The notes under the pieces are model-generated. The model worked only from the letters and a program-made list of their open reading frames with translations, ran no database searches and was not told the origin of the DNA. A stretch of DNA of 63,915 nt, filler included, from Stramenopiles sp. TOSAG23-6 (lineage: Eukaryota): the NCBI GenBank assembly GCA_900128565.1. It is 4 parts of 4 records of this genome, joined end to end, with 100 filler letters (N's around TTAATTAATTAA, not from the genome) between each part and the next. Parts side by side here need not be neighbours in the genome. Positions count along the whole stretch, not along the records: positions 32,655 to 48,746 come from LT636097.1; 3 more parts are not named here. One strand, given 5' to 3'. Shown one piece after another: positions 1-63,915 of the stretch. The position numbers were made by a program, and so were the translations under genes. Every line of letters begins with the position of its first letter. Positions within the stretch are counted from its first letter, which is position 1.

Positions 1-56
1 ATTTTGTACCTAACAAATTTAAGTTTTTTTTTTTGAAATATTTTTCCAAAATACAT
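1..56 (+). mobile_element. Introner-like intron, 3' part (contig-truncated), ends ...AAAATACAT
   Basis: ATTTTGTACCTAAC...TTGAAATATTTTTCCAAAATACAT matches the family; an open frame follows. Confidence 0.85.
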
Positions 57-2482
57 CTCTTTTTGAAAATTTCACTTCAAATGATACCATCGAAGATGTC
101 TTACGAGTAATTACCGCAGCTGATGAATTTAATGAAGAATTTTCAGTTCGTCGAGCGGAAAAAAGAGACATCAAAGCAATCAAAGGTAGATTCAAATTAC
201 CCAAAAAAGGTGGTATTACAAACAAAGTAAAAGTTTTACAATTAATTCAAGGAAGTCTTGAACAGAATGGTATGTATGTTTTATTTTTTTTTTTAACAAA
301 AAAATCGAATTTTTTTTCGTACGCAATTTTGTACCTAACAATTTTGTTTAGATTTTTTTTTGAAATATTTTTCCAAAATACATAGAAAATAGACTACTTA
401 AAACGCAAGCAGGAAAAATTTTGGAAACTTCATCTCGTATTCTAAAAGCTGCATTGTACTACTTGAAATCAAAAAAGAGTGCAGCAGTTCTTCAAGTGCG
501 TTTAATCTTGCGATCATTGGAAGCAAAGATGTGGGAAAATTCTGATTTCGTGTTACGTCAAATGAAAAATGTTGGAAAAGTCATGTCTAAAAAACTTCAT
601 GACGCAAATCTTAAACATTTTGCTGACCTGAATGGAATTTCTTCCTCGAGGCTAAATCTTCTTGTGGGGAAGAGTGCATCTGCTGTCTTTGGTAGTGTAC
701 GGTGTTCCACTTACATTTCATTTTTTTTTAATACCAAATTTCGTACCTAACGATTTTCGAATTTTAAATATTCTTTTATAACACGGAATCTTTTAAAACG
801 AGTAAATAATCTTCCTTGTCTTAATCTTGAAATTATTCGTGGTCTTACTAATATTCAAATGAATCTGTCCGTGAAAAAAGGTAAAAAAGATTCTGTATGT
901 TTTCAAAATTGAACGTTTTACCCATATTTTTTTCGTATATATAAAATTTCGTACCTAATGATTTTTTTGTACCGAAAAAAAAAATGATATTTTTTTACAA
1001 TACATGTGTCTTCTTACTTTACATCTATAATACTTCAAACAAAACAAAACGAAAAAATAAATCGTAGACTACTTCACTTTGGTAATTCAAGAGACAAGAT
1101 TAAAGTAGATGTACCCAAAGGCATTCATGGTGTTTTAGAAGTCAAAGTTTTACATAATACGATTATTGGCCTAGATCAAAAATGTATCGTGAAATTAGGT
1201 GGAATAAAAATCCATAGTGAAAACAACAAAAATGATAAAAAAAAACATTCAAAACAAACAAAACATCCTCGTGATATGTACGTTTACATCATTAATTTTA
1301 AATTTATTTTGTACGAAATTTTGTACCTAATGATTTTTTGTTTTTAATATTTTCATTCTATACAGTAAAACTACACCAAAACATTTTCAGAACTCGAAGA
1401 ATAAAGCGCGAAATAATTTGCCACGTAGAGTAAAGTCTTCAAAGATGAAAACGTTAGAAAACTTTGGATTTACACCGACTTCTCGAAATACAAAAAAACG
1501 AAAATTTGAAAATAGTTCTGTTCTTGATGAAAAGTCTTCATGCAATATGTCAAATAAATCTTCTTCCGCTTTTGTCTCACAGCAAAAACCACAGAATTTA
1601 TCTACTCATAAAAATGTAAAAACACCGAAACAAAAGAAACAAAAGAAACAAAAGAAACAAAAGAAACAAAAAAATGGATTTGCTCTTGCCAGAGAAAAAC
1701 AGAGAATGAATGGAAATGTAAAGGCAAAAATGAAGTTGGATTTTTCTCAACCGACAAAAATGTCTGTGCAGTCTCAACAGGCGCAATCGGATCCAATATG
1801 GTCACAACAAACACATATGTATGTTTTATTTTTTTTTTAATTTGAATTTTTTTTTTCGTACGAAATTTTGTACCAAACAATTTTTTTAGATTTTTTTTGA
1901 AATATTTTTCCAAAATACATGCAATCTTCTCAGCAACAGCCGTCATCCATATGGGAACTGCAACAACAAGCACAGGTAAACCAACAGCAAAGAAAACTTT
2001 TGAGATTCGAACGTCAAACATTTGCTCCAAAATTTCATCCTCATAACAGAATGGTATATGACAGTCGTGGCACTCAATATCANGAATCTGAACCATTCGA
2101 TTTTCGTCAGCAGCATGTGCCAACAACGTGGCAACAGCAACAGCCGCACCAAANATTTGCTCCAAAATTTCACCCTCATAGAGCAAATATNAATCAAAAC
2201 AGAATGGTATATGGCAGTCGTAGCACTCAATATCAAGAGCCATATTCATTCGGTCAAAGTCATAATGTTTCCCAAGCAGCACCAAAGACTTCTTGGCAAG
2301 AGCAGCAATTACCATATCGTGTAAAATTTCATCGTCAGAATGATAAAAGTTGTTTACAAAAGTTGCAGAAAAAAACGCAATTTTACCAAAATAATTATCA
2401 AAACAATGATGAAAACTATAAAAATGAACAACATTGTTCACAACAACAATACTATGATGATAGTAATCAGCAACAACAATGA
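57..2482 (+). CDS. HFM1: MER3/HFM1-like meiotic helicase, 3' part (Sec63 domain plus K- and Q-rich tail); 5'-truncated, multi-exon
   Basis: Exons 57-273, 384-696, 787-894, 1006-1277, 1366-1818 and 1921-2482 join in frame once the repeat-family introns are removed. The translation (LRVITAADEF..VRRAEKRDI..KVLQLIQGSL..RILKAAL..LILRSLEAKMWENSDFVLRQMKNVGKVMSKKL..FG-9x-LP) resembles the MER3/HFM1 Sec63 domain as I recall it. The helicase core lies outside the window. Confidence 0.75.
274..383 (+). mobile_element. Introner-like intron, 110 nt, GT...AT (AT/AT flanks)
   Basis: AT|GTATGTTTT...CGTACGCAATTTTGTACCTAAC...AAAATACAT|AGAA restores the frame (QNG-IENR). An in-frame canonical alternative, 270-385 (GT-AG), also exists. 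Confidence 0.8.
697..786 (+). mobile_element. Introner-like intron, 90 nt, GT...GG (diverged copy)
   Basis: GT|GTACGG...TTTCGTACCTAAC...ATAACACGG|AATCTT. It contains an in-frame stop; removal gives FGS-NLLKRVNNLP. Confidence 0.7.
895..1005 (+). mobile_element. Introner-like intron, 111 nt, GT...AT (CT/AT flanks)
   Basis: CT|GTATGTTTT...TTTCGTACCTAAT...TTACAATACAT|GTG. It contains an in-frame TGA and joins at phase 0. Confidence 0.8.
1278..1365 (+). mobile_element. Introner-like intron, 88 nt, GT...AG (canonical-ended member)
   Basis: AT|GTACGTTT...GTACGAAATTTTGTACCTAAT...CTATACAG|TAAA links the frames of ORFs 1006 and 1418. Confidence 0.85.
1627..1671 (+). repeat. 9-nt coding tandem repeat (AAACAAAAG)n encoding KQK
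   Basis: About 5 consecutive units visible. Confidence 0.8.
1819..1920 (+). mobile_element. Introner-like intron, 102 nt, GT...AT (AT/AT flanks)
   Basis: AT|GTATGTTTT...TTCGTACGAAATTTTGTACCAAAC...CCAAAATACAT|GCAA. It contains an in-frame TAA; there is no AG at the family 3' end. Confidence 0.85.
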
Positions 2483-31571: not shown

Positions 31572-31868
31572 TGCTCTAGAGTTTTGTTTGTTTACAACAA
31601 AAACACTCTAGCTAGATACAAAAATCTTTCAAATAATATGTGTGAATCATGAAACTGTCAAGGTCTAAATCAAAAAGTTTGATTGACACGACACCAAAAA
31701 CACAAACCTGCGCGCGTTCATTTCATTTTTTTTTGGTCGCTCTCTTCGTATTCGTCTCTCTCGACCCTGAAGAGATATTTATAACTTTTAGTCATTTTGA
31801 ACTTCTTGAATCTTGATACTTAAATGCAAACCTCTTATATTCTTTGATGTATATATGTTTTTTTATCG

Positions 31869-32504: not shown

Positions 32505-32554
32505 GTATGTTTTATTTTTTTTCAAATTCTATTTTTTTTCGTACGAAATTTTGT
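32505..32554 (+). mobile_element. Introner-like intron, 5' part (contig-truncated; mirror of 16384-16433)
   Basis: AT|GTATGTTTT...TTCGTACGAAATTTTGT, then the gap. Confidence 0.85.
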
Positions 32555-32654
32555 NNNNNNNNNNNNNNNNNNNNNNNNNNNNNNNNNNNNNNNNNNNNTT
32601 AATTAATTAANNNNNNNNNNNNNNNNNNNNNNNNNNNNNNNNNNNNNNNNNNNN
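32555..32654. other. Artificial contig linker
   Basis: N44-TTAATTAATTAA-N44. Confidence 0.97.
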
Positions 32655-33095
32655 ACATCCTTTGGTATTGAACCAGATAGTTTGTTGTCTTCCAAGGACA
32701 AAGTTTCGAGATAAAAAAAACGCATTCATGAACTTGAACAACAGCTCGGTGAAGCAAACGAAATGTTTCGTGAATGTAAAGTAGAGCTTGCTGAAGAGCA
32801 ACATCGAAGAGATAGGAGATCCGTAACGAAAATCATTTTGTGGTATCCCATTCATGGTAACGTCACTCAGGTTAGGATGACTTCCGATGGATAACCCTGG
32901 ACAAAATAATTTGCTTTGAGACATTTGTGTGTCGTATTGTTGAATGTCAGCTGGATTACTTTGTACATTGTTGTTGTTTTCAGGTATTTGTTGAGGTACA
33001 CTTTGATTGCGTTGTGTAGTTTCGTTTTGTTGAGCATTTGTAAATTGAATGCACAAAAATATAAGAAAACACGAAACTATACACTGTATATACAT
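32655..33095 (-). CDS. N-terminus of a secreted Q/N-rich protein; 3'-truncated, possibly chimeric below about 32820
   Basis: Signal-like leader MYIQCIVSCFLIFLCIQFTNA; the ORF runs into the gap. Confidence 0.5.
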
Positions 33096-33741
33096 ACTTT
33101 AATGCCACGTAGAGAGAACGATATGGAAATGTTGTATAGTATGTCTTGAGTTTCACTTGTGTAAAGAGTTTTTGATTGATTTCTTATCAAAGATAAACAC
33201 AACAACACACACACTTATAGTACGAGTCTAATATAATACTGTTACATATTTTCCATTTTCTTTTCGTCGATCTTGTTGTTTTTTTTATAACGTCTTTGTA
33301 ATAATTTTTTCTTCTTCAAGAAACACGAAATCTGGAAACTTTTGTATGTACAAACCTGGTTTTACATAAATTTACAAATGGACACAATATGCCGGGCAAA
33401 TTGGTCTTATGCAAATCTTTTATAAAACAAAATTAGAGAACTTTTTAATCATTCCTAATGATAACATTTGACCACAACTTTCTCATAAAGTATATATCAT
33501 CATCATCCAAGAAAGAATATGAAATAATAATTAAATTTTGCAGTGAGAGGAACCGTCAATTATTTTCACGAAAAAACACGAAAAAACAAGAAAAATGTCA
33601 AATTTTTATACCGATCAGATGACCAAGGAACTTTACCTCAGGAACTCAGAATTTACCTCGCGTGGTATCAATACTACCATTTGTATTATTGGAAACAAAA
33701 TATACTTACACAAAATATTTTAAAATAGTATCAAAAGTATA

Positions 33742-34041
33742 ATGTGTCTTTGTGCAATGTGCGAATTAGCTTGCCTTCCACTAAAGTGTGTAAAAATGAT
33801 TCTTACGAATTCTTGCAAACTTTTTGCATTTGTATTTTTTCTTCTATTCGGCGCACTCTTCGTTATTGGATTGACAAAAAAACCAATTGATCTTGGACTG
33901 AAGGGGTTCCCGTTATATCTTATGGCTGTAATTTCAGGTGGGTTTTTTGCTTTATTGATGCTATCATGTCTGATCACAAGATGCTGCAGACCAACTACAA
34001 CTGTAGTCGTCCAAAGGACGAACCCTACGAGTATGGCTTAA
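33742..34041 (+). CDS. Small hypothetical membrane protein (2 TM helices, Cys-rich ends)
   Basis: 99-aa ORF with two hydrophobic stretches, flanked by AT-rich intergenic DNA. Confidence 0.55.
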   Translation: MCLCAMCELACLPLKCVKMILTNSCKLFAFVFFLLFGALFVIGLTKKPIDLGLKGFPLYLMAVISGGFFALLMLSCLITRCCRPTTTVVVQRTNPTSMA

Positions 34042-34260
34042 CCTTGTACAACAACTATGAATGATATAAAATAATTTTGTTTTTCTTTAATTCTTTATAC
34101 CTTATTTCCATCGTAAAAATCTAAATTAAACAGAAATATAAATGGACAAAATATATACATATAATGTAGGAAGCTATTATTTTAATTAAAAGCCGTAAAA
34201 ATAACAAAATTTCAGCGAATACTGCTTTTTTAATTGAAACGTATATAATTTGTAAAACCT

Positions 34261-35691
34261 CTAATAATACCACTGTACCTTTTTACGCTTGTGATTTGGT
34301 ACACCCAGATTAAGTTCGTATAATTTATCAATCTTTTTAGTATAAAGTTTAGCGGCTTCCTGCTCAAGACGAATACGTTCTTTTTCGTCTTCTCTTTCTT
34401 TTGCTCTTTTGACCTTTCTAGCCTCTATTTGTGCAGTTATAAATTTGCTACTTTCCAAACGCAAATCTTTTTTTCTTTGTACTTTAGCCTCAGCTTCTTT
34501 TATTTTGATTTGTGTATCTGCCAAAAGTTTTGTTGCAAAATTCATATTTTCTTCTTCTTCTTTTCTTCGTCTCTCAGCTTTCCATTTTATTTGAGATTGA
34601 CGAGACTCATCAACTTCCCTCATTAATTTAGCTCTTGCATCTGCTTCAGCCTTCCATGTTTTTTCTCGTTTATTCCAGGCTTTGTCTTCCTCATCTCGGA
34701 GCAGTTGTTCCAAATATGAATCGTCTTGTTGCTCTTTGATCATCATTTGTTTTAGCATACCCTGATAATCTTTCATCTCCTTTTTGCGAGCAGCTTTTAA
34801 ATCTTGCTCTTCTTTCTCCTTGGCTGCTTCTTTTTTTAGTACAGCATGTAAAAGTCTCAAATCTTCTGCTGCTTCTGCATCTCCTTTATGTGAATCCAGT
34901 TCTTTCTTATGTGCATTAAATATAGCTGTTTCGCGCTCGATCTCTGCTGCGTGGTCTCTTCGGGCTTGTTGTTTATCCAACTCAGCTTGGTTTTCTGCAG
35001 CCCACCTCGCACGCATTCGTGCCAATTCTTCAGCGTCTTCTTGTTCTTGACGAGCCTTTAAATAAGCCACCTCTTTCACTTGCGCGGCAAGCATTCTTTT
35101 TGTTAAATCAGAGCGTTCATCTAATACCGCCTGCTCCGCAAGTTCACGACGAAGAAGCTTCTCCTTGCGTTTCGCATACTCCTCCTCTTTCAAACGATCA
35201 GCTTGACGAACTGCTTCCTCTCGTTCTTCTTTCCACACTAACTGTTGCTTACGTTCTTGTGCCACACGTCGTGTCAACATGTTAGCTTGGTATGAACGAA
35301 TCTCGTCAACACTATCACGCCACTGAATTGCGCGCAATCGTTCTACTTCTTTCAGACGATCTGTTTCTCTCTTCTCCTGAAGACTATTAGCATGACGGAC
35401 TAGTCGTTCACGACGCTGTTCCATTGTCTCAAAGCTTGAAGCTAACTTATCAGCTAAAAACTCATTCTCAGCAGTAAGCAGTGACATTAACTCTCTACGT
35501 CTAACATTGAGCTTCCGTGCATACGCTGCTTTACGTGAAGCTAAACGTTTCTTTACCTCCAACTTCTTCATCGCTTGTCCCGTTTTATTTTCCCATACTG
35601 CATAACCCATGGCAATTTTATCTCTGTTAAAGGATGCTTTCAACTGTGTACGTCTCGCTTCGCGTTCACGCGCTGCTGCAAATCCGTGCAT
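34261..35691 (-). CDS. CFAP53: Cilia- and flagella-associated protein 53-like (trichoplein/TPH coiled coil)
   Basis: E/R/K coiled coil with RRRELMSLL.AE...ETMEQRRERL...A..L.EKRE.DR...V......WRDSVDEIR and C-terminal RKKVQWYY. Confidence 0.75.
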   Translation of the reverse strand: MHGFAAAREREARRTQLKASFNRDKIAMGYAVWENKTGQAMKKLEVKKRLASRKAAYARKLNVRRRELMSLLTAENEFLADKLASSFETMEQRRERLVRHANSLQEKRETDRLKEVERLRAIQWRDSVDEIRSYQANMLTRRVAQERKQQLVWKEEREEAVRQADRLKEEEYAKRKEKLLRRELAEQAVLDERSDLTKRMLAAQVKEVAYLKARQEQEDAEELARMRARWAAENQAELDKQQARRDHAAEIERETAIFNAHKKELDSHKGDAEAAEDLRLLHAVLKKEAAKEKEEQDLKAARKKEMKDYQGMLKQMMIKEQQDDSYLEQLLRDEEDKAWNKREKTWKAEADARAKLMREVDESRQSQIKWKAERRRKEEEENMNFATKLLADTQIKIKEAEAKVQRKKDLRLESSKFITAQIEARKVKRAKEREDEKERIRLEQEAAKLYTKKIDKLYELNLGVPNHKRKKVQWYY

Positions 35692-36055
35692 TTTACTATA
35701 TTACAGTTTTAACAATGACCAACCTCCAAAGTCTGGAAGAATCTAAAAACTCAAAAGTGTTTCAAACCCAAAGAAATACTGTAGGAGTCTGAAAATCAAG
35801 AAGATTGACGATGTAACGTTACATCGAAAATGATACAATAGAACACGAAATCCCGTTTTTTTTATGGCCATTGCAATTATTTGAGTCGATGTCGATCGAT
35901 GTCGAAGTCAAAAACTTCCTCATGGAATTAACCTTTCTTGGGACAAGCTAGTATTGCTGTTATAATATTTTTCTACGAAAACAGCGACGAATCAAGACAT
36001 TGCTTTACATCAACAACATTGATTGATTTAGATTATCTATCGGTAGTGTTTCAAT

Positions 36056-39000
36056 ATGATTCCTGTGACGCCGAATCATAGGTTGTCTTCTCATAATGAT
36101 TTTCACAGGGGTGCAGGAGGTAACGAAGAAAATCAGAACCCTAATGTGTTAGCTGCTGGAAGCGCCCGACCTAAAACTTCAGTTTTAATCGACGAAACTA
36201 TAGCTTGTGGACCCAAATCTCTACATAATGTTACTGGTCGTCGTAAAACTTTAAAAAAGGAATCCCCGCGCACGATTCATTCAAACTCTTTTGATGAAAT
36301 CGGTCCACCGTCCGGTCCGGTACCAGAAGACTCTTATTCTGATCTTACTGTGTTGACACAGACTACCACGAATACCCGTTCTCCGACTGCGTTGAAATTA
36401 ATGAAACAGATGTTAGAAGAAGAAAGATACTTAGTCGCAGAGCTTACTGTAGTTAAAATGGAATTCCTTCAACCTCTTGAACAACAGGATACATCTTGGA
36501 AACAATCGTTGTTTAGAGAAGCGGAAATGGTGCTCTTTACATCAAGTTTTGAACAAATATATCGTTTACATTCTAGATTATTGGCTGATCTCGAAGAACT
36601 TATGGGAATTTCTAACGATGGTACAGAAAACACTGACCCTATGTTTGGTGCCGTTGTTCTGAGGTATGCAAATTTATTTGAAATGTACAGAGAATATGTT
36701 TTTGCTTTAGAAACATTTCGTGCTTTTCTATGTCAAGGTGGAGGTTTCTTAAAAGATCGACCGAAAGTTCTTGAATTTTTTAGAGATTTTCGTCGGACTC
36801 AGAGAACACGCTTATTGGCGGAAGAGCAATCTGATCTGGAACGCTCAAATACTTTGAAAAAAGTATTTTCCATGCAGAATGATAAAGCGGTTGAAGCTGC
36901 TGCGAAACGTGAATTTACTGAATTGAATCGGCGCTCTGCAATGCGTGAAAAAAGTTCACGATTTTCAGCATTTGTAGGTAACAATAGAAATTATACTCTT
37001 CAACGTGATATAAAGCAGCGAAATGGGTCGTTTATGATCCAAGAAAAATCTTTATCAAACCAAATGAATAGAAGTGACATAAAACACATTTCGACACGTT
37101 CTTCAGTATCCACCGCATCCTCCACACGATCATCTACATCGTTTTCGACAAACCGAAGTATCAAATATAAAGAAAATCAAGATACTCTAGAAAAAAATCA
37201 GCAACAACTTGAAGCCAATGGTGGTGCTTTGTATATATTTTTGAAATTAAGAGTTTCAAGAGTTGGAGAATATGTAAAGATTCTTCATTCGTTATTAGTA
37301 GCAACACCAGATGTATGTTTTATTTTTTTTCAATTTCGATTTTTTTTTCGTACGAAATTTCGTACCTAACAAATTTTGTTTTTTTTTGAAATATTTTTCC
37401 AAAATACATGATCATCCAGACCGTGCTGCAATAATAAAAGCAAAAGGCGCACTAGCCACAGCTCTTGTATCTGTTCATGTACGTTTTTCAATTCAATTTT
37501 AAATGTATAATATATTACTGTTTTCCAATTCAATTTTAAATGTATAATATATTACTGTTTCTCAAAGGTGTTTTCAAAGATTTTGTACTTATTAAATCCA
37601 AATTTGATATATTTTGCCAAAATAAATGAGGCATCACAAAGTACGACAGAAAGAGATAAATTACGTGTGTTAGAGTCACAATTTTCTACTGATGTTAGTT
37701 TAATTAAAACCGGAAGACGATTGTATGTTTTATTTTTTTTAATTTCGAATTTATTTTTTTTCGTACGAAATTTTGTATTTTTTGAAATATTTTTCCAAAA
37801 TACTTAGTTTTAGCTGGTCAGTTAGAGAAGGAGTCTCGAAAACGACGTATCAAATATCATGTAGGTTTATCCATCATTAACCCTAGTAACCCTAGGTGTA
37901 TCCATCATTTTAATTTCAATTTTTTTTTCATACAAAATTGTATACCTAACAAAAACAAGTTTGAAATATTTTCCATCAATACATTTCCATTTATTCAGTG
38001 ATGTTTTGTTATATTCCTCTGGATCTGCAAAGAGTGGAGGATTTGCGTTGCATCGTGCAATGCCTCTGCTTCAAATGACCGTGAAAAATGTAGGTAACAA
38101 AAAACCATGCTCATTTCAAATTCTTGGTGCTGAAAAGTCGTTTACGTGTCATGTACGTTTTCGAAATTGAATTGTTTACCTACTTTTTTTTAGTTTGAAA
38201 ATTTTGTACCTAACAAATTTCGAAAGTAATATTTGTTTTACAATACATGCAAGTAGTGTACAAGAGAAACGACGATGGTTTCGTGCACTGAATCGTCATA
38301 TTAACGAGTGCAAAGCCGAAGCGGGTGCTGAAGGAACTGAGACAGTTGTGGCTCCAGTTTGGACGAATGATTCTTCTGGATCGAATTGTAGTTTATGCGT
38401 TGCTGAGTTTACATTTCGACGACGTCGTCATCATTGTCGTAATTGTGGAGCCTTGGTTTGCTCAAATTGTTCTCAGGACCGTCGTGTTGTCCAACACATG
38501 TACGTTTTCATCATGAATTTCTAATTTATTTTTTTTTCATACGAAATTTTGTACCTAAACAAAACAATAATGTATGAAATATTTTCCACAATATATTGAC
38601 CCTGTGGAAGCNGTAAGAGTTTGCTCACAGTGTATGAACAAAATTTCCTTAAAGGAACGGGCCATGTATAGATGGGAATTGCGTTTGATGAAAGTACAGA
38701 ATACTAACTTAAAAGGTGATCGAAGAGCATATGCTCATATTGATCTTTTACAAACGTACCCACATCATACAACAACAAGTATGTCAGTGTCGGAGGCGGA
38801 GCTTGAAGCTGGTGATTCTACCGGAAGTATACCTTCTTCTTCTAGCAGTTCTAAAGGGACTAAAGTATCAAAAAATACATCGAAAAAGATTTCAAAATCA
38901 TTACTACGTGGTGGACAATCTGTAATGGCAAAGATGTCGATGGGCTCTTCGAGACCATCTAGTAATTCATCTTCATCAAGCTCATCAACGCTATCAACAA

Positions 39001-41604
39001 TTAATTCTGTGTGGCGTGACGAGATTCATTCTTTTCCAGTAGAAGATCCATCTAAATCGGTATTGCGTGTGATGCTATGGGGTAGGAAATTCGGAAATGA
39101 TGCATTTTATGGTTTCGTCGACTTAAATTTATCAATGCTTTGTGCGGAAAGAGATAAATTAGGAGCTTCGCTTAATACGAAAATGCCTCCTCTTAAAGCA
39201 CTCAAGTCTGGTCAACCTTGGGGGATTAAGAAAAACCTCATGAAGGAGTTGGTGCTTCCACTACAGGCTAGAAATAGCGGGGATTCATCAGCCGGAGGCA
39301 CATTGACTTTACAAATGGCATTAGTTGAACCAACAGTGACATGTCCACTATCGCCTGGTTCTGTTGTAACATCATCAACCTGGATGAAGTGTGTTCGAGA
39401 TACGAAAAAGGCATTAGTTTTACATCCTTGCAGACTGATGGTCGAAACTACTGCAATGATTTGCCAGTTAGCACTTGCGGCAGCGACAATAGCTAAAGAT
39501 GCGGAACGACTATATCTAAAAAGTAATCGAATATCTAGGAAAGGTAGAAGTTCGAGAGGTTCAAGACCGTTACCTCCTCCTCCACCACCACCTGCACATA
39601 TTCCACCACCACCATTGTCTGATGATGATGACATTCCACCACCACCATTATCTGATGATGATATTTTAAATATTCCACCACCTCCTCTTTTTATGGATGA
39701 TGTATGTTTTATTTTTTTTTTTAAATTTGAATTTATTTTTTCGTACGAAATTTTGTACCTAACGAATTTTTAAAGATTTTTTTTGAAATATTTTTCCAAA
39801 ATACATGCACCTGTTGGAGGTCATAAAATTTTATCTGCTGGAGTTGATAAAATCCCACCTCCACCAAAAGATGTATTGCCCGGAACTACGACTATAAAAA
39901 AACGTAGTTGTAAAACAAGACGCAGAAAAAAAATACCGAAAAAATTAAAATTTAATCCAGATTCTATATTTTCTGCATCTGATGTAAAATCTCTTCGGCT
40001 TGCATTACATGAACTTAGTAAGCACCCCGAATTAAAAGTGATATGTACTGATGATATTGATCCGAATAAACTAACTTCTCGACAACGGGTAATACACGAG
40101 ATGTTACAAAAAGCAAGAAGTTACGACGTCGATATCCAAAAACTGAAACAATTATTTGTGGAGCCATTAGAGCAAGCAAAGGCTGGCGGGCGTCTTCATA
40201 TAGATGGTGAAAATTCCAGTAGTAACATTAGACAAAAATCTTCGCTAATTGGGGGATTTGCTAAAAGTCTGAATGCTAATCCTAAAAAGTCGAAAGATGT
40301 AAGTGAAATGTTATCAGATCCCGATCTCGCAGTTTTATTGCAGAGTATTAAAGATGCTCATACTTTAAATACTGATATGTTATCCAGACTGAAATCGGCA
40401 ACAAAGGGCTGGCCCATAGAAATTTGTGTTGCGGATATATTTACACATTTTGCCGGACTTTGTGGTCATACCTATGGTGCATTTGCAAGGTCGCATGCAA
40501 CTACTCTGGATACATTGGATTCCCCTGCATTCGCAGATTTTTTACATTCGTTTACAACCATTCTTGGAGAATCATATGAGTCGTTACTCATTAAACCTGT
40601 GCAGTGGGTGCTCCGGTTAGTTTTACTACTACATTCATTGAAAAAAGAAACTGATAAAGTCAATCAACGGAGGAAACAGGCAACCGTGACAGAAGAAGAT
40701 GTCGTAGAACATCCAGACACCCCATTTTTACCTTTAGCTATTGAAAAACTGGAGGAAGCATGTGATGAAATTAATAAATATGTCATGGTTCGTGATAGTA
40801 AAATGAAAATCATCGCATTACAAAAGACAATGTCAGGTCTTCCGAGTAATCTTAATTTATGCTCCACAAACAGGTTGTTGTTAAAACGCGGTAGACTTGT
40901 AAAACAATGTCGTCGACGTCCCAAGGATTACGTTTTTATTTTATTTGATGACTTATTGTTGTATGCCGAAGGAAGGGAAGAATCAGAAGTTGTCGGCGGT
41001 GGAGAGGACCAGGAGAAGAACAAATTGGAATATCATAGACACTTAGAATTAGTATCCGCTGCAGTAGAGGATGGACAACTCATCGAACCTGATGAAAAAG
41101 CTAAAATATTGGGGAAATGTGATGGTAGTACACCTTTTTCATTTCTTTTTAAAGCATCTGAAAAATCATGTATGTTTTCATCATTAATTTCATTTTTTTT
41201 CATAGAAATTTTTGAACCTAACAATCTTAAAATTTAAAATATTTTTTTACAACANATTTTTGTTGTATGCAAAAAATCAAAAAGAGAAAACGAGTTGGAT
41301 GAAAGCGATAAATGATGCTATCTCTAAACTTAGAGATTCCTCCCCTGAACTTGCAGATATAAATTCTAAAACAGCGGCTGTCTGGGCCGCTGATTCTAGT
41401 GGGACTCATTGTACGCTGAAAGGCTGCAATCGAGAGTTTAACCTTATATGTAGAAGACATCACTGTAGACTTTGTGGTGCACTGGTATGCGATAAGTGTT
41501 CAAAGCACAGGGAGATTCTTCCTCATATTGATTTGAAAAAAAAACAGCGTATTTGTAATATTTGTAAACCAACTTTAACAAAAGAAAGAAATTCTTCCTC
41601 ATAG
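36056..41604 (+). CDS. Tandem RhoGEF(DH)-PH-FYVE, C2, Pro-rich, RhoGEF-PH-FYVE protein (FGD-like); 9 exons
   Basis: Exons 36056-37312, 37410-37478, 37628-37722, 37806-37860, 37985-38152, 38249-38499, 38597-39701, 39807-41169 and 41258-41604 join in frame. Motifs rebuilt across junctions: TPD|DHPD, GRRL|VLAGQL, KYH|FHLFSDVLLY, SFTCH|ASSVQEKRRW, QHI|DPVEAVRVC, KSF|LLYA. There are two RRHHCR.CG..VC FYVE fingers. Confidence 0.88.
37313..37409 (+). mobile_element. Introner-like intron, 97 nt, GT...AT (AT/AT)
   Basis: GAT|GTATGT...CGTACGAAATTTCGTACCTAAC...AAAATACAT|GATCATCCAGAC. The nearest AG (37418-37419) is out of frame. Confidence 0.9.
37479..37627 (+). mobile_element. Diverged family intron, 149 nt, GT...AT, with internal 37-nt tandem duplication
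   Basis: CAT|GTACGTTTT...GCCAAAATAAAT|GAG. An in-frame AG alternative exists 3 nt downstream (37630). Duplication at 37489-37560. Confidence 0.7.
37723..37805 (+). mobile_element. Introner-like intron, 83 nt, GT...TT (TT/TT flanks)
   Basis: CGATT|GTATGT...CCAAAATACTT|AGTTTTAGCT. Both nearby AGs are out of frame; removal restores PH-domain GRRLVLAGQL. Confidence 0.88.
37861..37984 (+). mobile_element. Introner-like intron, 124 nt, GT...AT (AT/AT)
   Basis: CAT|GTAGGT...TATACCTAAC...TCAATACAT|TTCCAT restores YHFHLFSDVLLY. Confidence 0.85.
38153..38248 (+). mobile_element. Introner-like intron, 96 nt, GT...AT (AT/AT)
   Basis: CAT|GTACGT...TTTTGTACCTAAC...ACAATACAT|GCAAGT. It contains an in-frame stop; the next AGs are out of frame. 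Confidence 0.88.
38500..38596 (+). mobile_element. Introner-like intron, 97 nt, GT...AT (AT/AT)
   Basis: CACAT|GTACGT...GTACCTAAAC...ACAATATAT|TGAC gives HID, as in the second FYVE finger of the same gene. Confidence 0.85.
39702..39806 (+). mobile_element. Introner-like intron, 105 nt, GT...AT (AT/AT)
   Basis: GAT|GTATGT...CGTACGAAATTTTGTACCTAAC...CCAAAATACAT|GCA; in-frame TAA inside. Confidence 0.88.
41170..41257 (+). mobile_element. Introner-like intron, 88 nt, GT...AT (AT/AT)
   Basis: TCAT|GTATGT...GAACCTAAC...ACAACANAT|TTTTG restores PH-domain KSFLLYAKNQKEKTSW. Confidence 0.82.
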
Positions 41605-41770
41605 TGATTTGAGGAAACCATCGTATTTGTAATATTTGTAAACCAACTTTTAACGAAATAAATTAGATATTTTTATATTCCAAGGGATGCGTTAACATTT
41701 TCGTTCTCTAAGNGATATCATCCCGAAATAGTCTTTAAATATATTTTTGAATCAAAAGTATGAGACTCTA

Positions 41771-42421
41771 CTAACCCGATTTGAAAAACTGTTGTACTGC
41801 TTGTACTTCTTTGGCACAATTAGGATGGTGCTGATAAAAATTCTGAGCAAGGCCCCTAAAAGCTCTAACGTATCCGCTCTTAGAATGATATTTTCTTAAT
41901 ACTTCATCTATACGTAGTAGGGATAACTCACAGTCTCTCCTTCTTTTACCTTCTTTCAATGCATTTATATCTGGGGTGGGAGCTGGTGTTGGAGCTGGTG
42001 CTGGAGCTTTTTGGGACACTGGTGGTGCCGGTGGAGCATTTCCATACCAGAACCACGGATGATTCGTTATTGGAAATTGCGGGTTTACTGGAACATTTGG
42101 TGTCATGACTGGAACATTTGCTGTCATGACTGGAACATTTGCTGTCACTACTGGAACATTTGGTGTCATTGGTGGAGGATACATCAAATTAAGTTTTGGT
42201 ATCATTGGTTGAGGATACATCAAACCATTGCGCTGAAAAGGTAAATGACTTGGATACCCCAGTCCAACTGGACTATTTGGATACCACGGCTGACTTATTG
42301 GACCATTTGGATACCAAGATACTCTATTTTTGGTTACCATCCTTACACTTTCAATAAAAGCAAAATTTTGGCTGACTATAATCAAAGAAAGAATAAGAGT
42401 GGAAGAAATTAAGTGACTCAT
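41771..42421 (-). CDS. Secreted Pro-rich protein with 7-aa repeats (NVPVMTA/P)
   Basis: Signal peptide; 21-nt tandem repeats at about 42087-42170; PAPAPTP tract. Confidence 0.75.
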   Translation of the reverse strand: MSHLISSTLILSLIIVSQNFAFIESVRMVTKNRVSWYPNGPISQPWYPNSPVGLGYPSHLPFQRNGLMYPQPMIPKLNLMYPPPMTPNVPVVTANVPVMTANVPVMTPNVPVNPQFPITNHPWFWYGNAPPAPPVSQKAPAPAPTPAPTPDINALKEGKRRRDCELSLLRIDEVLRKYHSKSGYVRAFRGLAQNFYQHHPNCAKEVQAVQQFFKSG

Positions 42422-42802
42422 CCTTACACTTTGTCGTAAATAGTATGGTATATATAGAGAAGAAGGATACGAAAAAAGACTTTCCGAAATTTCAAATTTT
42501 CAAAAATTCAAATTTCGAAAAATTCGAAATTTCGAAATTTCAAAAAATTCAAAATTTTGATTTGTGAAAAATCGATAAAATCTTGTCGAAGACAACTGAA
42601 TGAGCTCAAGAGCATTATTAGGATAAAACCAATAAAAGAATCTTAGAAAAATTAAAATATATTCATGTTAATACTGGTTTTATTTTTTAATTTAATGCTG
42701 ATTTTTGACAATGATTTCAAACTGAATTNGAAATGTCTGGAAGATACATATACTCCAAGGTGAAGAATATGTATGATTGAAGGTGTTGTAGCGTTAGGAA
42801 TC

Positions 42803-43447
42803 TTATTCTTCTTCATCATTTTCTTCATCATTTTCTTCATTGCTTCCTTTGGAAGTTTCGGGTCTTGCTCTTCTTCTTCGTAACTTTTTCTTCTTTGACT
42901 CTGGTAATGGTCCCATAAACGACCAAGCAGGACCCATTACAGGTGGCATTACATTCATCATTGGTGGCATTACATTCATCATTGGTGGCATTACATTCAT
43001 CATTGGTGACATTGCATTCATCATTGGCGGCATTAAATTCATCATTGGCGGCATTATGTTCATCATTTGTGACATGTCTGGTGGCATCATCGATAAAGAC
43101 AACGGTGGGTGCCAAGTGAGTGACATTGGCGGAATCCACGTCGGACTTGTCTCTGGTACATTTGGCAAAGAATCATTTGGTTGATATAACATAGACGGAA
43201 ATACGGGATTACTTGGTAGAAAATCTGGAAATGTATTCATAGGGTGAGGTAAATAAGATTGAAACATTGTACCTGTCCACGGACCCATTGGACTGTAAGG
43301 TAGCATTCCGATTCCTCCAGGTAGCGTTCCAAATCCTCCAGGCATACTTGGTTGTTGAATCCCAGCATATGTCGGCTGAATCGCAGCATGTATTTGGCAA
43401 ACTTTAATTGAAAGCAAAATGTATATACATGAAATCAAGCGACTCAT
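42803..43447 (-). CDS. Secreted Met/Pro-rich protein with MNVMPPM repeats and a basic then acidic tail
   Basis: Leader MSRLISC resembles the neighbour's MSHLISS; 21-nt repeats at about 42943-43066. Confidence 0.75.
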   Translation of the reverse strand: MSRLISCIYILLSIKVCQIHAAIQPTYAGIQQPSMPGGFGTLPGGIGMLPYSPMGPWTGTMFQSYLPHPMNTFPDFLPSNPVFPSMLYQPNDSLPNVPETSPTWIPPMSLTWHPPLSLSMMPPDMSQMMNIMPPMMNLMPPMMNAMSPMMNVMPPMMNVMPPMMNVMPPVMGPAWSFMGPLPESKKKKLRRRRARPETSKGSNEENDEENDEEE

Positions 43448-43622
43448 TATACTAATACACTTTAGATGCGTTTACACAATACAACATGTGTTGGTTGAAT
43501 TATATACGCACAGAGCAAGCGAGCGAGGTGTCTTGGAATTACATTCAAATTTTCTTTAATTTGAAATTTAAATTTTAAATTGGGAAAAAAATTCTTCTTC
43601 CGGAAACTTCTTGAAAAAAAGC

Positions 43623-43632
43623 ACAAACCTGC
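43623..43632 (+). promoter_or_regulatory. Candidate promoter motif ACAAACCTGC
   Basis: About 123 nt upstream of ATG 43755, on the same strand. Confidence 0.5.
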
Positions 43633-43754
43633 TTTGACTTTGCAAAAATTAATTTAAGTCAGTCAGTTTGAAAATCCAAAATTCCGGGCCGCCCGTTATT
43701 TTGTCGTCCTTCCAGTACTACAACACACATTTGTCACCAAAACAAAAATTCAAA

Positions 43755-45893: not shown

Positions 45894-46022
45894 ATTCACA
45901 ATCTTTAGTATTATAGCGATTTGAAAAAATGCATATTTTAAAAAATGAGCAAAAATCAAAAATAAGAGTTGTACATAATAATAAAAATTACGGTTTTATA
46001 AATAAACCAACTATTTTAATTT

Positions 46023-48693: not shown

Positions 48694-48746
48694 ATGTATT
48701 TTGGAAAAATATTTCAAAAAAAAAATTGTTAGGTACAAAATTTCGT
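48694..48746 (-). mobile_element. Introner-like intron, 3' part (contig-truncated), ends AT
   Basis: Minus strand reads ACGAAATTTTGTACCTAAC...TTTCCAAAATACAT|GTGT. Confidence 0.85.
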
Positions 48747-48846
48747 NNNNNNNNNNNNNNNNNNNNNNNNNNNNNNNNNNNNNNNNNNNNTTAATTAATT
48801 AANNNNNNNNNNNNNNNNNNNNNNNNNNNNNNNNNNNNNNNNNNNN
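48747..48846. other. Artificial contig linker
   Basis: N44-TTAATTAATTAA-N44. Confidence 0.97.
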
Positions 48847-57739: not shown

Positions 57740-59251
57740 ATGACTTTAAAGCGCTGGCGATCTCAAAGAAAAACTAGATACAACAAGTCCAATTATATCG
57801 GCAGTCCCAAAAGAAGGAGGGGAAATGATTCTCGTGGTTATCAAATTAAAGATACAAAGACAAACTCTAGTCTACACAATATGGATATTGATAGACGATA
57901 CAAAAAGGATACGAGTAGAAATAATCACACCGTACCTAAATTTAGGCTAAAAAAACGTAGTCGAGAAAAGAGAATTCCTGCACATGAATACTCTAGAGCT
58001 GCAAGAAATGTGTCAAATGACAGGTCAGTACGACGTAGGTCAACTCAAAGTCGTCGTGACTTTCAAAGGCATAAACGTTTTAGTTCTGGACATAACATTC
58101 CTCATCCTCCAGATTTAGTAGATGAAAAATCGATACCATTTCCTTCCGTAGTTCACTTGAAGGCTTCAAAGTCTGCTAGACGAAAAGTATGTTTTATTTT
58201 TTTTTCAAATTCGATTTTTTTTTCGTACGAAATTTTGTACCTAACGATTTTTTTAGAATTTTTTTTGAAATATTTTTTCACGATACAGGCGTTTGTTGAA
58301 GATTCAGAAGTAAATCGTCCCTCACTTGTAGCTGATAGATCACAGAGACATTCTTTACGTCAGGTCATGGAACAAGTTAGACACTCAATAACTCAATCTA
58401 CACCACCACCTAACAAAATTAATCGAATCATAAACTTAAAACACATTAATAATCAAGAAAATAATCAATTGTATTCACCAAGATTGAGTGAAAATAGTAA
58501 TCGACTACGAATTCAAAAGGTTAATGTTCAACTTCAAAATCTCGCACCTTCGCCAAAATTAAGTGGAAGTTCTACACATACAAAGAATGGCACACTTGTA
58601 TACACACGTTTTGATCTACTATCTGTTTTCGTTGATTACAGTAATATATTTATACCAATCAAGACAAAATATCCTAGGTGTAAATTGAATGTACAAAGAT
58701 TAGCTCGGATAGTAATGGGAAATCGACAAGCACGAACAGAAGATTCCCTTATGGTTGGTGCATCTGTTGTATCACATCCTTCATCTGCATCTCCACGGAC
58801 TCAGAGATGGATTCGAGAATGGCAAAGATGTCATTATAAAGTTCATGTTCAAAATCGATCTCGTGGGACGGGGGAAAGTTTTGTAGATGATATGATTCAT
58901 GCTCAAATGTATGTTTTATTTTTTTTCAAATTCGATTTTGTTTCGTACGAAATATTATACCTAACGATTTTTTTTGGAAATATTTTTCCAAAATACATAT
59001 ATGTTGAAATGAGAAAACATAGAGAATTGCCCGGTACACTTGCCTTGCTTACAGGTGACGGAAATCAAAATAATGAAAGAAGTAGTTTCCCAGATATTGC
59101 TCAACACGCATTAGAAGATGGTTGGTGTGTTGAGGTGTGGAGTTGGGCAAAATCAACCCACAATGTCTGGTATGCTCTCGAAAGTAAATATCGTAGAATG
59201 AAAGTGTATGCTCTTGATGATTACAAGAAACAAATTTTAACACATTTTTGA
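57740..59251 (+). CDS. NYN-domain (PIN-like RNase) protein with Arg-rich N-terminus; 3 exons
   Basis: Exons 57740-58186, 58289-58908 and 58999-59251. Motifs VFVDYSNI, ESFVDDMIHAQI, PGTLALLTGDGN and ALEDGWCVEVWSW. Confidence 0.82.
   Translation: MTLKRWRSQRKTRYNKSNYIGSPKRRRGNDSRGYQIKDTKTNSSLHNMDIDRRYKKDTSRNNHTVPKFRLKKRSREKRIPAHEYSRAARNVSNDRSVRRRSTQSRRDFQRHKRFSSGHNIPHPPDLVDEKSIPFPSVVHLKASKSARRKVCFIFFSNSIFFSYEILYLTIFLEFFLKYFFTIQAFVEDSEVNRPSLVADRSQRHSLRQVMEQVRHSITQSTPPPNKINRIINLKHINNQENNQLYSPRLSENSNRLRIQKVNVQLQNLAPSPKLSGSSTHTKNGTLVYTRFDLLSVFVDYSNIFIPIKTKYPRCKLNVQRLARIVMGNRQARTEDSLMVGASVVSHPSSASPRTQRWIREWQRCHYKVHVQNRSRGTGESFVDDMIHAQMYVLFFFKFDFVSYEILYLTIFFGNIFPKYIYVEMRKHRELPGTLALLTGDGNQNNERSSFPDIAQHALEDGWCVEVWSWAKSTHNVWYALESKYRRMKVYALDDYKKQILTHF
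58187..58288 (+). mobile_element. Introner-like intron, 102 nt, GT...AG (AA/AG flanks), in frame and stop-free
   Basis: AAA|GTATGT...CGTACGAAATTTTGTACCTAAC...CGATACAG|GCG. Confidence 0.88.
58909..58998 (+). mobile_element. Introner-like intron, 90 nt, GT...AT (AT/AT), in frame and stop-free
   Basis: CAAAT|GTATGT...CGTACGAAATATTATACCTAAC...AAAATACAT|ATAT; interrupts the NYN core. Confidence 0.88.
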
Positions 59252-62054: not shown

Positions 62055-63856
62055 TCATGTCAGTAAGTTCACCGATGAAGTATCTCCCTTGTTCTTCTTC
62101 TTTTTATCTTTCTTTTTTTTATCTTTTTTTTTCTTCTTTTCCTTCTTTGATTTTTTATCTTTCTTTTTTGTGTTGCTATTTTTACCACTATTATCATCAT
62201 GTTTTGGAGCTGTCTGTGTTGAATCAGTTCCAATACCTATCAAATTATCTAAATCATTCATTTCCCATGCAGATTCATTTTCAGTTTGCTTTGAAACATC
62301 CTTATTATTGTCATCATCATCCATAAAATCATCTAGAAAATTCGTGCTCTTCGAATCATTTTGTATGGAAGTAGTATTTATATCAAGTATATTGTTGTTA
62401 CTTTCATTCGAATCGTTTTTTACTTTTCTTTTTTTCTTCTTGTCCTTTTTTTTATTCTTTTTCTTTTTTCGAGACATGTTTGACTCATTTTTTTCATCTG
62501 GTATTTCTTTGGTTTTTCGATGACTCAAAGTCGGTATAACTTCATCCGCGTGTAATGGAACAGTTACATCAATATCAGCAAGACCTAGATCAGATTCATT
62601 ATTCTTTTTATCATTTGTGTCTACTTCCGAAACGTCATCAGAATCATCAGCTCCATCAGGTAGCTCTTCTTCATCCATAACAACATATTTTATCTTTGAT
62701 CGTTTATTTTTTTTATGACGACTTGTACTATTACTTTGTAAGTCTGACTTTCGTAACATTCGTATAGGAATTTTATCAACATCAAATGTATCAGAATTTT
62801 CATTATTATCTTCATTCGTTTTCTTCGAAGGCGAGTCTAAGTAATATGGATCATTTGCTTTTTTTACCATAGCTTTCATTTGTTTACGTTCATGTATTGT
62901 AAAAAAAATTAAATTCGAAATTTGTTAGGTACAAAATTTCGTACGAAAAAATAAATTTGAAATTCATAATGAAAACGTTCTCTTCTCTCAATACGACGAA
63001 GTTCTTTTGCTGATAACTTTTTTTTATCACTTTTACTCATTTGACCAATTTTACGTAATTCCATTTCATTTAATGCAGACGCTTCAACAGAAGCAATTAA
63101 TTCAATTTCTCCTTCGGAATGGTCTGATTCTTCTTCACTGGAATGAGTACCATCACTTTTGATAGAACAAAACTTCAAATCCGTAAACCAACGATTTGAC
63201 GCATTTTGAGAATTTTCTTTACTGACTTCCAATAGTTGTCGTGATTTTGGATCAATCCATTTTTCAAGATCTAGACCTTCAGGAATAGGGACTTTTTTCT
63301 GTGCTTTTGTTGATACAGCAGATAATTTTTTCTTATGTACACCATTCAAAGTAGATAATAAAGCAGAATGAGAAGAAGCTCCATCTTCTGAGAGTATTTC
63401 CATCAAACGAGTGAGAGATTCAACACGATCTGAGACTTCTATGTATGTTGAATTCTGCCAATTTGATAATTTTGCAATGCATAAAGCAACAATTGAATCT
63501 AAACATACAACTTTATCATTGTTTACATCATTGTCGTTTTCATTATTTTCATCATAATCAGTACTAGAGGGTAATCCATCACCTGCAGATCCAGCAACTG
63601 AGACAAATATCTTTAGTATAGCTTGTATATAGAAACTTTGAGTCTTCTCAGAAAGCTTTTCGGGTGAAGCACAAAGTAAAGATCCTAAGACACTTTCCGG
63701 ATGTTCAATGTATTCAGCATACTCTCCTACAATCCATGCACATGCGTATAGTACTTTATTTGTGCTACAACCTCTTGAAAGTAAAGAAATATCTGATAAT
63801 AAAGGAATCATACTTTTACATGCAAATTGTCGAACTACAGGAACACGTAATGATAC
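62055..63856 (-). CDS. AP3D1: AP-3 complex subunit delta, 3' part (exons 63856-62981 and 62891-62055)
   Basis: VSLRVPVVRQFA, VLYACAWIVGEYA, STYIEVSDR, VSTKAQKKVPIPEGLDLEKWI, NDPYYL; K-rich tail. Confidence 0.9.
62892..62980 (-). mobile_element. Introner-like intron, 89 nt, GA...AT by family alignment
   Basis: Minus strand AGA|GAACGTTTTCATT...CGTACGAAATTTTGTACCTAAC...ACAATACAT|GAACGT joins the two AP3D ORFs at phase 0. Confidence 0.8.
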
Positions 63857-63915
63857 ATGTATTTTGGAAAAATATTTCAAAAAAAAATCTAAAAAAAATT
63901 GTTAGGTACAAAATT
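63857..63915 (-). mobile_element. Introner-like intron, 3' part (truncated), ends AT
   Basis: Minus strand reads AATTTTGTACCTAAC...TTTCCAAAATACAT|GTATCATTACGT. Confidence 0.85.

Follow-up and report, generated by a model that had tools for sequence, protein, structure and literature searches.

Short repeated introns of a marine stramenopile that appear to be removed from RNA without a terminal AG, and their possible origin as introners

The stretch of DNA analysed here (63,915 nucleotides (nt), hereafter the window) comes from the genome of Stramenopiles sp. TOSAG23-6 (assembly GCA_900128565.1) and consists of four contigs of about 16 kilobases (kb) arranged by decreasing length, at 1-16283, 16384-32554, 32655-48746 and 48847-63915; the joints between them (16284-16383, 32555-32654 and 48747-48846) are each made up of 44 N, TTAATTAATTAA and another 44 N, and features are not readable across them. 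The G+C content is 29-42%, and genes are dense on both strands, with long unbroken frames under the standard code. The share of the sequence words of the window that recurs elsewhere reaches 0.80 in seawater metagenomes and 0.91 in small DNA runs of one organism, with small shares in four seawater metatranscriptomes, the samples being marine. The subject of this report is a family of short repeated introns that interrupts four unrelated genes of the window, among them a gene for a protein with two DH(RhoGEF)-PH-FYVE modules (the RhoGEF gene, Table 1), and whose members for the most part do not end in AG.

A profile made from 15 copies and run over the window finds 16 complete copies, 15 of them on the plus strand and one on the minus strand, and this is the same set that an earlier examination of the DNA on its own (the sequence-only reading) had named. 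Beyond the four genes, truncated copies at contig ends indicate two more open frames with family members; four such copies are distinct, and one of these is present in duplicate. Complete copies (named below by their start positions) are 83-149 nt long, with pairwise identities of 44-93%; the members of a young subgroup (274, 1819, 37313, 39702, 58187 and 58909) are 76-93% identical to each other. All 20 distinct copies lie in sense to the adjoining open reading frame (P ~1e-6), and no full copy that was antisense or intergenic was found within the window by the profile search. The sole family-like sequence outside introns in the window is a 34-nt piece of the palindromic element core (TTTCGTACGAAA...) at 49815-49848, right behind the stop codon of the frame 48799-49824.

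The two ends of the introns are conserved to different extents. At the 5' end, which is GT in 15 of the 16 complete copies and GA in the other, positions +1 to +9 read G (16), T (15), A (16), T, C or G (9, 6 and 1), G (16), T (15), T (16), T (15) and T (14). At the 3' end, positions -6 to -3 read A (16), T (14), A (16) and C (13), and are followed by a variable end in which A at -2 occurs in 14 copies and T at -1 in 13. The final dinucleotide is therefore AT in 12 copies, TT in one (37723), GG in one (697) and AG in two (1278 and 58187), which reproduces exactly the tally of the sequence-only reading; the three copies truncated at the 5' side all finish in ATACAT. A branch-like motif, ACC[TA]AA, is present in 14 of the 16, with the branch-like A 33-47 nt before the 3' end, and a T-rich tract precedes that end; the motif ACCTAAC is missing from 37479, which is rearranged by a tandem duplication, and from 37723, where it falls in a deletion. 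The strand bias, the invariant GTAYGT, ACCTAAC and the T-rich tract are together what characterizes a spliceosomal intron of the major type, and the 5' and branch sites are yeast-like when set beside the yeast consensus signals.

The family appears to have copies in the thousands. In an independent metagenome of 2024 (X2, assembled as DNA contigs), bins that bear the intron have summed depths of 30,845 and 35,446, as against 8-9 in bins holding only exons, with 7893 matching records; these sums may take in other organisms and are not a copy number. Wherever a contig in the window ends against a gene, the end consists of a cut intron copy, as would follow if the assembler broke at a high-copy repeat. 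Family statistics are based on the window, on the summed metagenome contig tables and on L001, a related metagenome contig of 3221 nt with 35% G+C, which was the only further locus found by an exact scan of metagenome contigs with a 21-nt core pattern. L001 carries, at 2476-2580 on the minus strand and in a different gene, a copy of the form at|GTATGT...ACCTAAC...ATACAT. Two pattern scans of viral contigs gave no family copy. A scan of the window for GTAYGT outside the family gave 55 sites, nine of them with YTAAC within 260 nt; those inspected lie in long frames or tandem repeats, and no intron of another kind was seen, in a scan made without full gene models.

That these inserts behave as introns is indicated in the first place by the reading frames. 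After excision, the longest open frames upstream and downstream join in frame for 13 of the 15 plus-strand copies and for the minus-strand copy, the remaining two plus-strand copies, which adjoin short exons, being ambiguous; there are no conflicts. Excision of all eight introns of the RhoGEF gene together leaves 4716 nt with no stop, in DNA of 34-38% G+C. As the copies have diverged to 44-93% identity and the 4716 nt of exons are nevertheless open, selection has kept the frame since the insertions.

The sequence-only reading had proposed that the spliced protein be aligned with a homologue. Such a homologue, P0001, is an intronless RhoGEF protein of 535 amino acids (aa) encoded on a contig of 1778 nt, and its frame must be uninterrupted because a protein of this length leaves no space for introns on such a contig. 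It shares about 48% identity with the second DH-PH-FYVE module of the RhoGEF protein and 32% with the first. Six of the eight junctions fall inside the ungapped alignment, the junction of 37313 lies one residue outside it, and that of 39702 also lies outside. Intron positions are thus lineage-specific, as recent gains would be, in that the P0001 frame is unbroken across six of them, in a comparison with one relative only. Protein searches with the 454-aa exon (at near and shorter lengths) and with the 90-aa exon between 895 and 1278 returned only P0001 and no near-identical fragments.

The rebuilding of conserved domains, which had been claimed more widely, is borne out in part. Among the Pfam matches, PH and FYVE run on across junctions, RhoGEF and FYVE are found in exons and Sec63 lies within one exon; Adaptin_N and AP3D1 match only below the Pfam cut-off, and NYN was not found in single exons.

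Two contigs from RNA libraries show where sequence has been joined or bounded. A contig of 162 nt from X11, a poly(A) metatranscriptome, joins 39617-39699 directly to 39805-39883 with no mismatch (X11-14, depth 5.5), and this joint is a clean removal of 105 nt that equals intron 39702 given the repeated AT. The second contig, X10-5, comes from a further RNA library (X10; another such library is X7) and is 151 nt long; its letters 14-108 lie without mismatch on 37626-37720, i.e. exactly on the exon between introns 37479 and 37723 in the convention used for X11-14, and we infer that the remaining 13 and 43 letters belong to the neighbouring exons. Use of the in-frame AG at 37479 as acceptor would cut away a GAG, and this GAG is present in the contig. 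Parts of the RhoGEF gene outside the cover of RNA contigs were not counted as evidence. X10-5 stops exactly at the exon boundaries of 37479 and 37723, the two copies that lack the branch-like motif, and these copies hint that the motif may be dispensable or replaceable.

The same inserts are present in DNA. Contigs 16, 18 and 19 of X2 enter introns 37313, 37723, 37861 and 38153 at an exon-like depth of about 8.5, contig 16 extending 25 nt into 37313, and contig 20, at a like depth of about 8.5, crosses all of intron 38500 and enters 39702. Since the inserts occur in the DNA of an independent metagenome, they are real DNA and not assembly artefacts, and they are missing from at least one RNA.

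No in-frame AG lies within 40 nt at 37313 or 37723, and the sole in-frame AG lies at +18 at 38153 and at +21 at 38500, where its use would in either case delete residues aligned to P0001; the statement in the sequence-only reading that the nearest AGs at these four copies are out of frame or would delete conserved residues is consistent with this. In-frame alternatives exist at the two copies for which it had allowed them, at +3 in 37479 and, in 274, as a GT-AG intron that needs a donor 4 nt upstream. In six of the 16 copies there is an AG 10-13 nt beyond the branch-like A that does not serve as the acceptor; in 39702 the RNA contig shows directly that it is unused, and because such AGs are bypassed, AG is not the selector of the 3' end. 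Taken together, the RNA junction at 39699-39805, the exon match of X10-5 and the six ungapped junctions support the removal of the family inserts from RNA at points without AG, as the sequence-only reading had proposed. Its stronger wording, that the organism does so routinely, is based on the window and on the very high depth of the family in a metagenome, and not on a genome-wide junction count.

Table 1. Positions of the host gene and of the complete and truncated intron copies in the window.
Feature	Position	Strand	Basis
Host gene, two DH(RhoGEF)-PH-FYVE modules, eight family introns	36047..41601	+	Pfam on exons, splice/translation, P0001 alignment
Intron 97 nt, at|GTATGT...ACCTAAC...ATACAT, AT flank repeated	37313..37409	+	Frame only; junction 1 residue outside P0001 alignment
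Intron 149 nt, at|GTACGT...ATAAAT, internal tandem duplication, without ACCTAAC	37479..37627	+	Ungapped P0001 alignment, aa 445/446; RNA contig X10-5 starts 37626
Intron 83 nt, tt|GTATGT...ATACTT, TT flank repeated, branch motif deleted	37723..37805	+	Ungapped alignment, aa 477; X10-5 ends 37720
Intron 124 nt, at|GTAGGT...ACCTAAC...ATACAT, unused internal AG 25 nt before end	37861..37984	+	Ungapped alignment, aa 495/496; X2-18 and X2-19 enter
Intron 96 nt, at|GTACGT...ACCTAAC...ATACAT, unused internal AG 22 nt before end	38153..38248	+	Ungapped alignment, aa 551/552
Intron 97 nt, at|GTACGT...ACCTAAA...ATATAT, splits FYVE finger	38500..38596	+	Ungapped alignment, aa 635; X2-20 spans whole
Intron 105 nt, at|GTATGT...ACCTAAC...ATACAT, unused internal AG 31 nt before end	39702..39806	+	Removal seen in RNA contig X11-14; X2-20 enters
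Intron 88 nt, at|GTATGT...ACCTAAC...ACANAT, phase 1, splits PH domain	41170..41257	+	Frame; ungapped alignment, aa 1458
Intron 110 nt, Sec63-domain gene, at|GTATGT...ATACAT; GT-AG alternative (donor -4, acceptor +2)	274..383	+	Profile, frame
Intron 90 nt, gt|GTACGG...ACACGG, flank not repeated	697..786	+	Profile, frame
Intron 111 nt, ct|GTATGT...ATACAT, flank not repeated	895..1005	+	Profile, frame
Intron 88 nt, at|GTACGT...ATACAG (GT-AG)	1278..1365	+	Profile, frame
Intron 102 nt, at|GTATGT...ACCAAAC...ATACAT	1819..1920	+	Profile, frame
Intron 102 nt, aa|GTATGT...ATACAG (GT-AG), skips internal TAG 32 nt before end	58187..58288	+	Profile, frame
Intron 90 nt, at|GTATGT...ATACAT	58909..58998	+	Profile, frame
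Intron 89 nt, adaptin-like gene, ga|GAACGT...ATACAT|GAACGT, 6-nt direct repeat	62892..62980	-	Profile, frame
3' part of copy cut by contig end, ends ATACAT	1..55	+	Profile
3' part of copy cut by contig end, ends ATACAT	48695..48747	-	Profile
3' part of copy cut by window end, ends ATACAT	63858..63915	-	Profile
5' part of copy cut by contig end, at|GTATGT; inverted duplicate at 16384-16433	32505..32554	+	Profile

The exact position of the splice points is complicated by a repeat in the flanks. The two exon bases before the intron are the same as its last two bases in 11 of the 16 copies (AT in ten, TT in one; P ~3e-10), and AT stands upstream of the intron in 11 of the 16 (P ~1e-8 against an exon AT frequency of 0.093). 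At least 57 contigs of X2 start their likeness to intron 37313 exactly at the AT before GTATGT, and contigs from other loci lose that likeness at 37311 and 37409. With a repeated flank, the same excision can be written as GT-AT, TG-CA or AT-AC and yields an identical product, so that the name GT-AT under which the sequence-only reading had described the family does not hold as a finding and is a convention; the 3' end is non-AG in every register.

The flank repeat looks like a 2-base-pair (bp) target duplication with a strong preference for AT, or alternatively like an insertion preference for AT. The TT/TT pair at 37723 is a direct repeat unable to pair with itself, which favours duplication over a pairing of the two ends. 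Three other sources of the repeat or of the joint were considered and rejected. A TA duplication of the Tc1/mariner type in a shifted register fits 274 and does not fit 37313; a Helitron-like insertion between A and T disagrees with the ends, which are not TC...CTRR; and a template-switch artefact of reverse transcriptase is unlikely, the repeat being only 2 nt long and 16 excisions restoring frames.

Where the flanks are discordant (895, CT/AT; 697, GT/GG; 1278, AT/AG; 58187, AA/AG) the registers predict different messenger RNAs (mRNAs). For 895 the product would read ...GATTCT|GTGTCT... if the intron runs from GT to AT, and ...GATT|ATGTGTCT... if it ends at ATAC; for 697 the corresponding forms would be AGT|AAT in the GT register and A|GGAAT with an end at ATAC, and for 1278 they would be GATAT|TAAA and GAT|AGTAAA. 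No RNA or peptide was found across these four copies.

The account that we favour, with confidence somewhat better than even, is that of an introner-type element which carries its own 5' and branch sites, and whose removal is completed by ligation two bases after ATAC on a duplicated target dinucleotide, most likely by the major spliceosome. In detail, a mobile element, non-autonomous and only about 90-110 nt long, would have inserted into coding exons. Each copy would have brought a strong 5' splice site (GTAYGTTTT) and mostly a branch site (ACCTAAC), and its terminal ATAC would be followed by the two target bases, usually AT, in a second copy. Cleavage by the spliceosome, probably the major one, would take place before the G of GTAYGT, and the exons would be ligated two bases past ATAC, where the duplicated dinucleotide ends. 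The mRNA would thereby regain the exact sequence that preceded the insertion, and the 3' dinucleotide would be whatever the target had been (AT, TT, GG or AG), with no AG required. If the last two bases are target bases, this explains their variation, the constant ATAC and the bypassing of nearer AGs. The introner nature of the family, and the duplicated flank that explains the variable last two bases, are points that go beyond the sequence-only reading.

The components of this account are of different kinds. What the data show is the family itself, with all its copies in sense, the repeated flanking dinucleotide, and an exact excision of inserts that the DNA has and one RNA contig lacks. A transposon origin with a 2-bp target duplication is suggested by the repeated flanks, and a GT-NN register is probably to be preferred over NN-AC, as is the major over the minor spliceosome, together with the rule that ligation falls two bases after ATAC. 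A cut before the G is favoured because ATGTAYGT fits neither the U12-type nor the U2-type AT-AC form, and GTAYGT is retained in the five copies that do not have AT before it. How the ligation point could be set is a matter for speculation, one possible way being the complementarity of ATAC to GTAT of the 5' site, against which stand the weak predicted folds, the joining of the two ends in no more than seven of 15 of them and the uncompensated change at +4 (all detailed below). More tentatively, and with the balance of our judgement against it in this full form, a ruler of two bases past ATAC, and not AG, would set the ligation, nearer AGs would be skipped, and non-AG introns of transposon origin would form the main class of introns in this organism, in thousands of copies whose 5' and branch sites are of textbook form. 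If such a ruler reading were true, the requirements of the two catalytic steps would be separated in a natural system.

Several observations weigh against the favoured account, the thinness of the RNA evidence being its chief weakness. There is a single complete RNA junction, and it is seen in one assembled contig (depth 5.5) and not in raw reads; the second RNA contig only shows a match that stops at two predicted boundaries; and the X11-14 contig could stem from an allele in the community that has no intron there. The RNA libraries also contain contigs that match the intron family at 90% or more, 1052 in X7, 1113 in X11 and 67 in X10, which may be precursors, excised introns or DNA carry-over. 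As to the register, AT-AC fits equally well for 11 of the 16 copies, and at the discordant plus-strand copies the choice of register alters at most one unconserved residue, and none at 58187. As to the duplication, five of the 16 copies are without a flank repeat, and copy 62892 starts GAACGT and has the same six bases after its 3' end, so that its boundary slides by up to 6 nt, with one register being GT-AC; the 2-bp duplication model does not explain this copy. Neither an autonomous element nor an empty site was found, and terminal inverted repeats of more than 6 nt were likewise not found; the motif-less copies 37479 and 37723 seem to be spliced, which the account leaves unexplained.

The alternative that survives best, though we think it rather improbable, is that the true ends are AT...AC, the intron running from the AT before GTAYGT to ATAC and being removed by the major or the minor spliceosome. 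The resulting mRNA would be identical in 11 of the 16 copies, 13 of the 16 would end in AC (C at -3 in 13, A at -4 in all 16), and a first A with a last C is a known compatible pair of intron ends; the AT before GTATGT is shared by the metagenome contigs described above, and the aligner placed the joint of X11-14 in the AT-AC register, by convention only. The 5' site speaks against such an arrangement. ATGTAYGT does not match the U12-type ATATCCTT, nor does it match the AT-AC form of U2-type introns, in which the first base alone departs from a GT site; the invariant GTAYGT would moreover be shifted by two bases from the place where U1 and U6 usually read it, and five of the 16 copies would start with five different dinucleotides (CT, TT, GT, AA and GA). 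AT-AC introns with a WCTAAC branch consensus have been described in marine mirusviruses, with hosts given as unknown in the accessible part of the source (PMC12768974), and these fit an AT-AC reading; we regard them as a lead and not as a link.

If the spliceosome that removes the family were the minor (U12-type) one, or one transformed in some other way, as in the expansion of such introns in Physarum, a loose 3' dinucleotide would be allowed, GT-AT being a known minor, non-canonical class there. This reading has some sequence likeness in its favour: GTATGTTTT differs from the Physarum form GTATCTTT solely at +5, and ACCTAAC misses the U12 branch motif CCTTAAC by one base. The positions that define the class nevertheless point elsewhere and make this reading unlikely. 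G stands at +5 in all 16 copies and T at +6 in 15, in place of CC or CT, so that the 5' site [AG]TATCCTT is not found; nor is TCCTTRAC found near the 3' end, the branch-like A lying 33-47 nt from that end as against about 10-15 nt. The 64-kb window holds no Rfam match, U11, U12, U4atac and U6atac included, which says nothing on the rest of the genome.

A removal that is not spliceosomal, in which the ends pair (ATGTAT with ATACAT) and an endonuclease and a ligase, or a pathway like that of euglenids, act with a 2-nt stagger, seems very unlikely. Six terminal bases on each side are complementary where the flank is AT, the minimum-energy folds join the ends by 4-6 bp in seven of 15 cases, and splicing seems to occur in two copies that have no branch motif. 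Against this, the folds predicted for the introns are weak (-7 to -15 kcal/mol, with 12 of 15 z-scores weaker than -2), and neither folding nor end pairing is strong enough to sustain a mechanism based on structure; the inverted ends are no longer than 6 nt, and position -6, an A in every copy, does not follow the change between T and C at +4. Ends of the types TT/TT, CT/AT, GT/GG and AA/AG are unable to pair; a pairing signal would work in either orientation, yet all 20 copies are sense; and GTAYGT and ACCTAAC are conserved.

On a last reading, RNA is not where the inserts are lost: they would be subject to DNA elimination or be recent insertions in dead genes, with the RNA contig stemming from an insert-free allele. 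This would fit the single joined RNA contig and the plentiful intron-family sequence in the RNA libraries, and is hardly credible given that the inserts are present at exon depth in independent metagenome DNA, against what ciliate-type elimination would leave, that the exons have stayed open while the copies diverged, that the orientation is strictly sense and that the standard code reads the 4554-codon frame next door.

The other contents of the window are as follows. Intron load is uneven, with eight introns in the 5.5-kb RhoGEF gene and none in that frame of 4554 codons, which lies at 2671-16283 on the minus strand and continues beyond the end of the contig; its product is a giant HECT ubiquitin ligase that has SPRY and PA domains, and the frame adjoins genes with five to eight family introns. 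At 52411-57447, also on the minus strand, a frame of 1678 codons encodes an alpha-2-macroglobulin or thioester-containing protein with MG2, MG3, A2M, TED and receptor-binding domains, and one gene of the window corresponds to a SUMO-E1-like protein in a protein atlas. The contig at 16384-32554 is palindromic, with perfect inverted arms of 6839 nt (0 mismatches) on either side of a unique 2.4-kb centre (approximate length), and its genes therefore occur twice, mirrored; this is probably an inverted chimera from whole-genome amplification and not biology.

The terminal AG is among the most constant signals of eukaryotic gene expression. The lineages that break it at scale (Fritillaria, Amoebophrya, euglenids and, in its minor introns, Physarum) have each altered other signals too. 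The present family keeps its yeast-like 5' and branch sites and departs at the 3' end, always at the same distance from ATAC, and would therefore be a clean case in which to study what the second catalytic step needs; on the favoured account, it would also show a transposon becoming an intron without landing on, or carrying, an AG. In practical terms, gene callers and introner surveys based on GY-AG ends, as the accessible sources describe them, would miss the introns of this family and break the gene models of this organism, and assemblies break at these repeats.

The comparison with known systems that follows draws on the accessible portions of the cited sources. Introners are intron-generating transposons of Micromonas, Aureococcus, Chrysochromulina, dinoflagellates and others (PMC9860276, PMC12130899); those of the Chrysochromulina type bring their own 5' site and take the 3' site from the target duplication (PMC9860276), an arrangement like that of the favoured account. 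The present family is like them in consisting of many similar short introns in unrelated genes, in sense orientation, with short flank repeats that may be duplications and an exact excision that restores the coding sequence. Its likeness is limited to introns in unrelated genes, its members are spliced with the coding sequence restored, and its positions are lineage-specific. Published introners differ from it in having GY-AG ends and duplications of 3-9 bp (PMC9860276), whereas here only two of the 16 copies end in AG, 14 are non-AG, and the putative duplication is 2 bp. Introner surveys began from annotated GY-AG introns, and families with unfamiliar ends were inspected or discarded (PMC12130899).

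Fritillaria borealis, in which AG-AC and AG-AT are the commonest ends, fewer than 10% of introns are GT-AG and the U2AF paralogues are divergent (PMC11282704, PMC13326754), likewise has transposon-derived, species-specific introns in a marine planktonic organism, with non-AG ends that include AC and AT and with efficient removal by a tolerant spliceosome. Its introns mostly also lack the 5' GT, whereas in the present family the 5' and branch sites are canonical and only the 3' end departs. The introner elements of Amoebophrya have inverted repeats of 8-20 nt in hairpins, direct repeats of 3-5 nt and no preferred ends, and U1 was not detected in the part of the study available (PMC7789003). They share with the family a repeated, non-canonical and non-autonomous character and direct repeats across the boundary that leave the exact border ambiguous; in the present family, by contrast, inverted repeats do not exceed 6 nt, direct repeats measure 2 nt, and GTAYGT is a perfect 5' site of the U1/U6 type.

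In Physarum polycephalum, the expanded U12-type introns carry RTATCYTT, with TTTGA as branch motif 10-12 nt before the end and non-canonical ends in 0.8% of introns, and a 2-bp TA duplication has been proposed for them (bioRxiv 10.1101/2020.10.12.336362). Mass intron gain, possibly by a transposon with a 2-bp duplication, ends of the types GT-AT, AT-AA and AT-AT, and a T-rich run after GTAT are points of likeness; the present family differs in having G at +5 throughout, a branch-like motif 33-47 nt away from the end, and ends other than AG in most copies. The nonconventional introns of euglenids lack a U1-complementary 5' end, and a stable stem joins their ends (PMC11282704). Variable borders, short junction repeats and a suspected origin from miniature inverted-repeat transposable elements bring them close to the family, which differs in its weak folds and its conserved GTAYGT and thus does not show the features of the euglenid type.

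In the open full-text literature, with subscription journals and supplements outside its coverage, no introner family whose ends are of the GT-AT or AT-AC kind came to light, and the accessible portions of papers on marine protist single-cell genomes mention no unusual intron ends (PMC5778133, PMC5269757, 10.64898/2026.04.17.719054). On the favoured account, the family is a variant of the transposon-derived non-canonical introns exemplified by Fritillaria, Amoebophrya and Physarum, and it displays the defining features of none of these special cases; of the systems compared, it is the only one that keeps canonical 5' and branch sites and departs at the 3' end alone.

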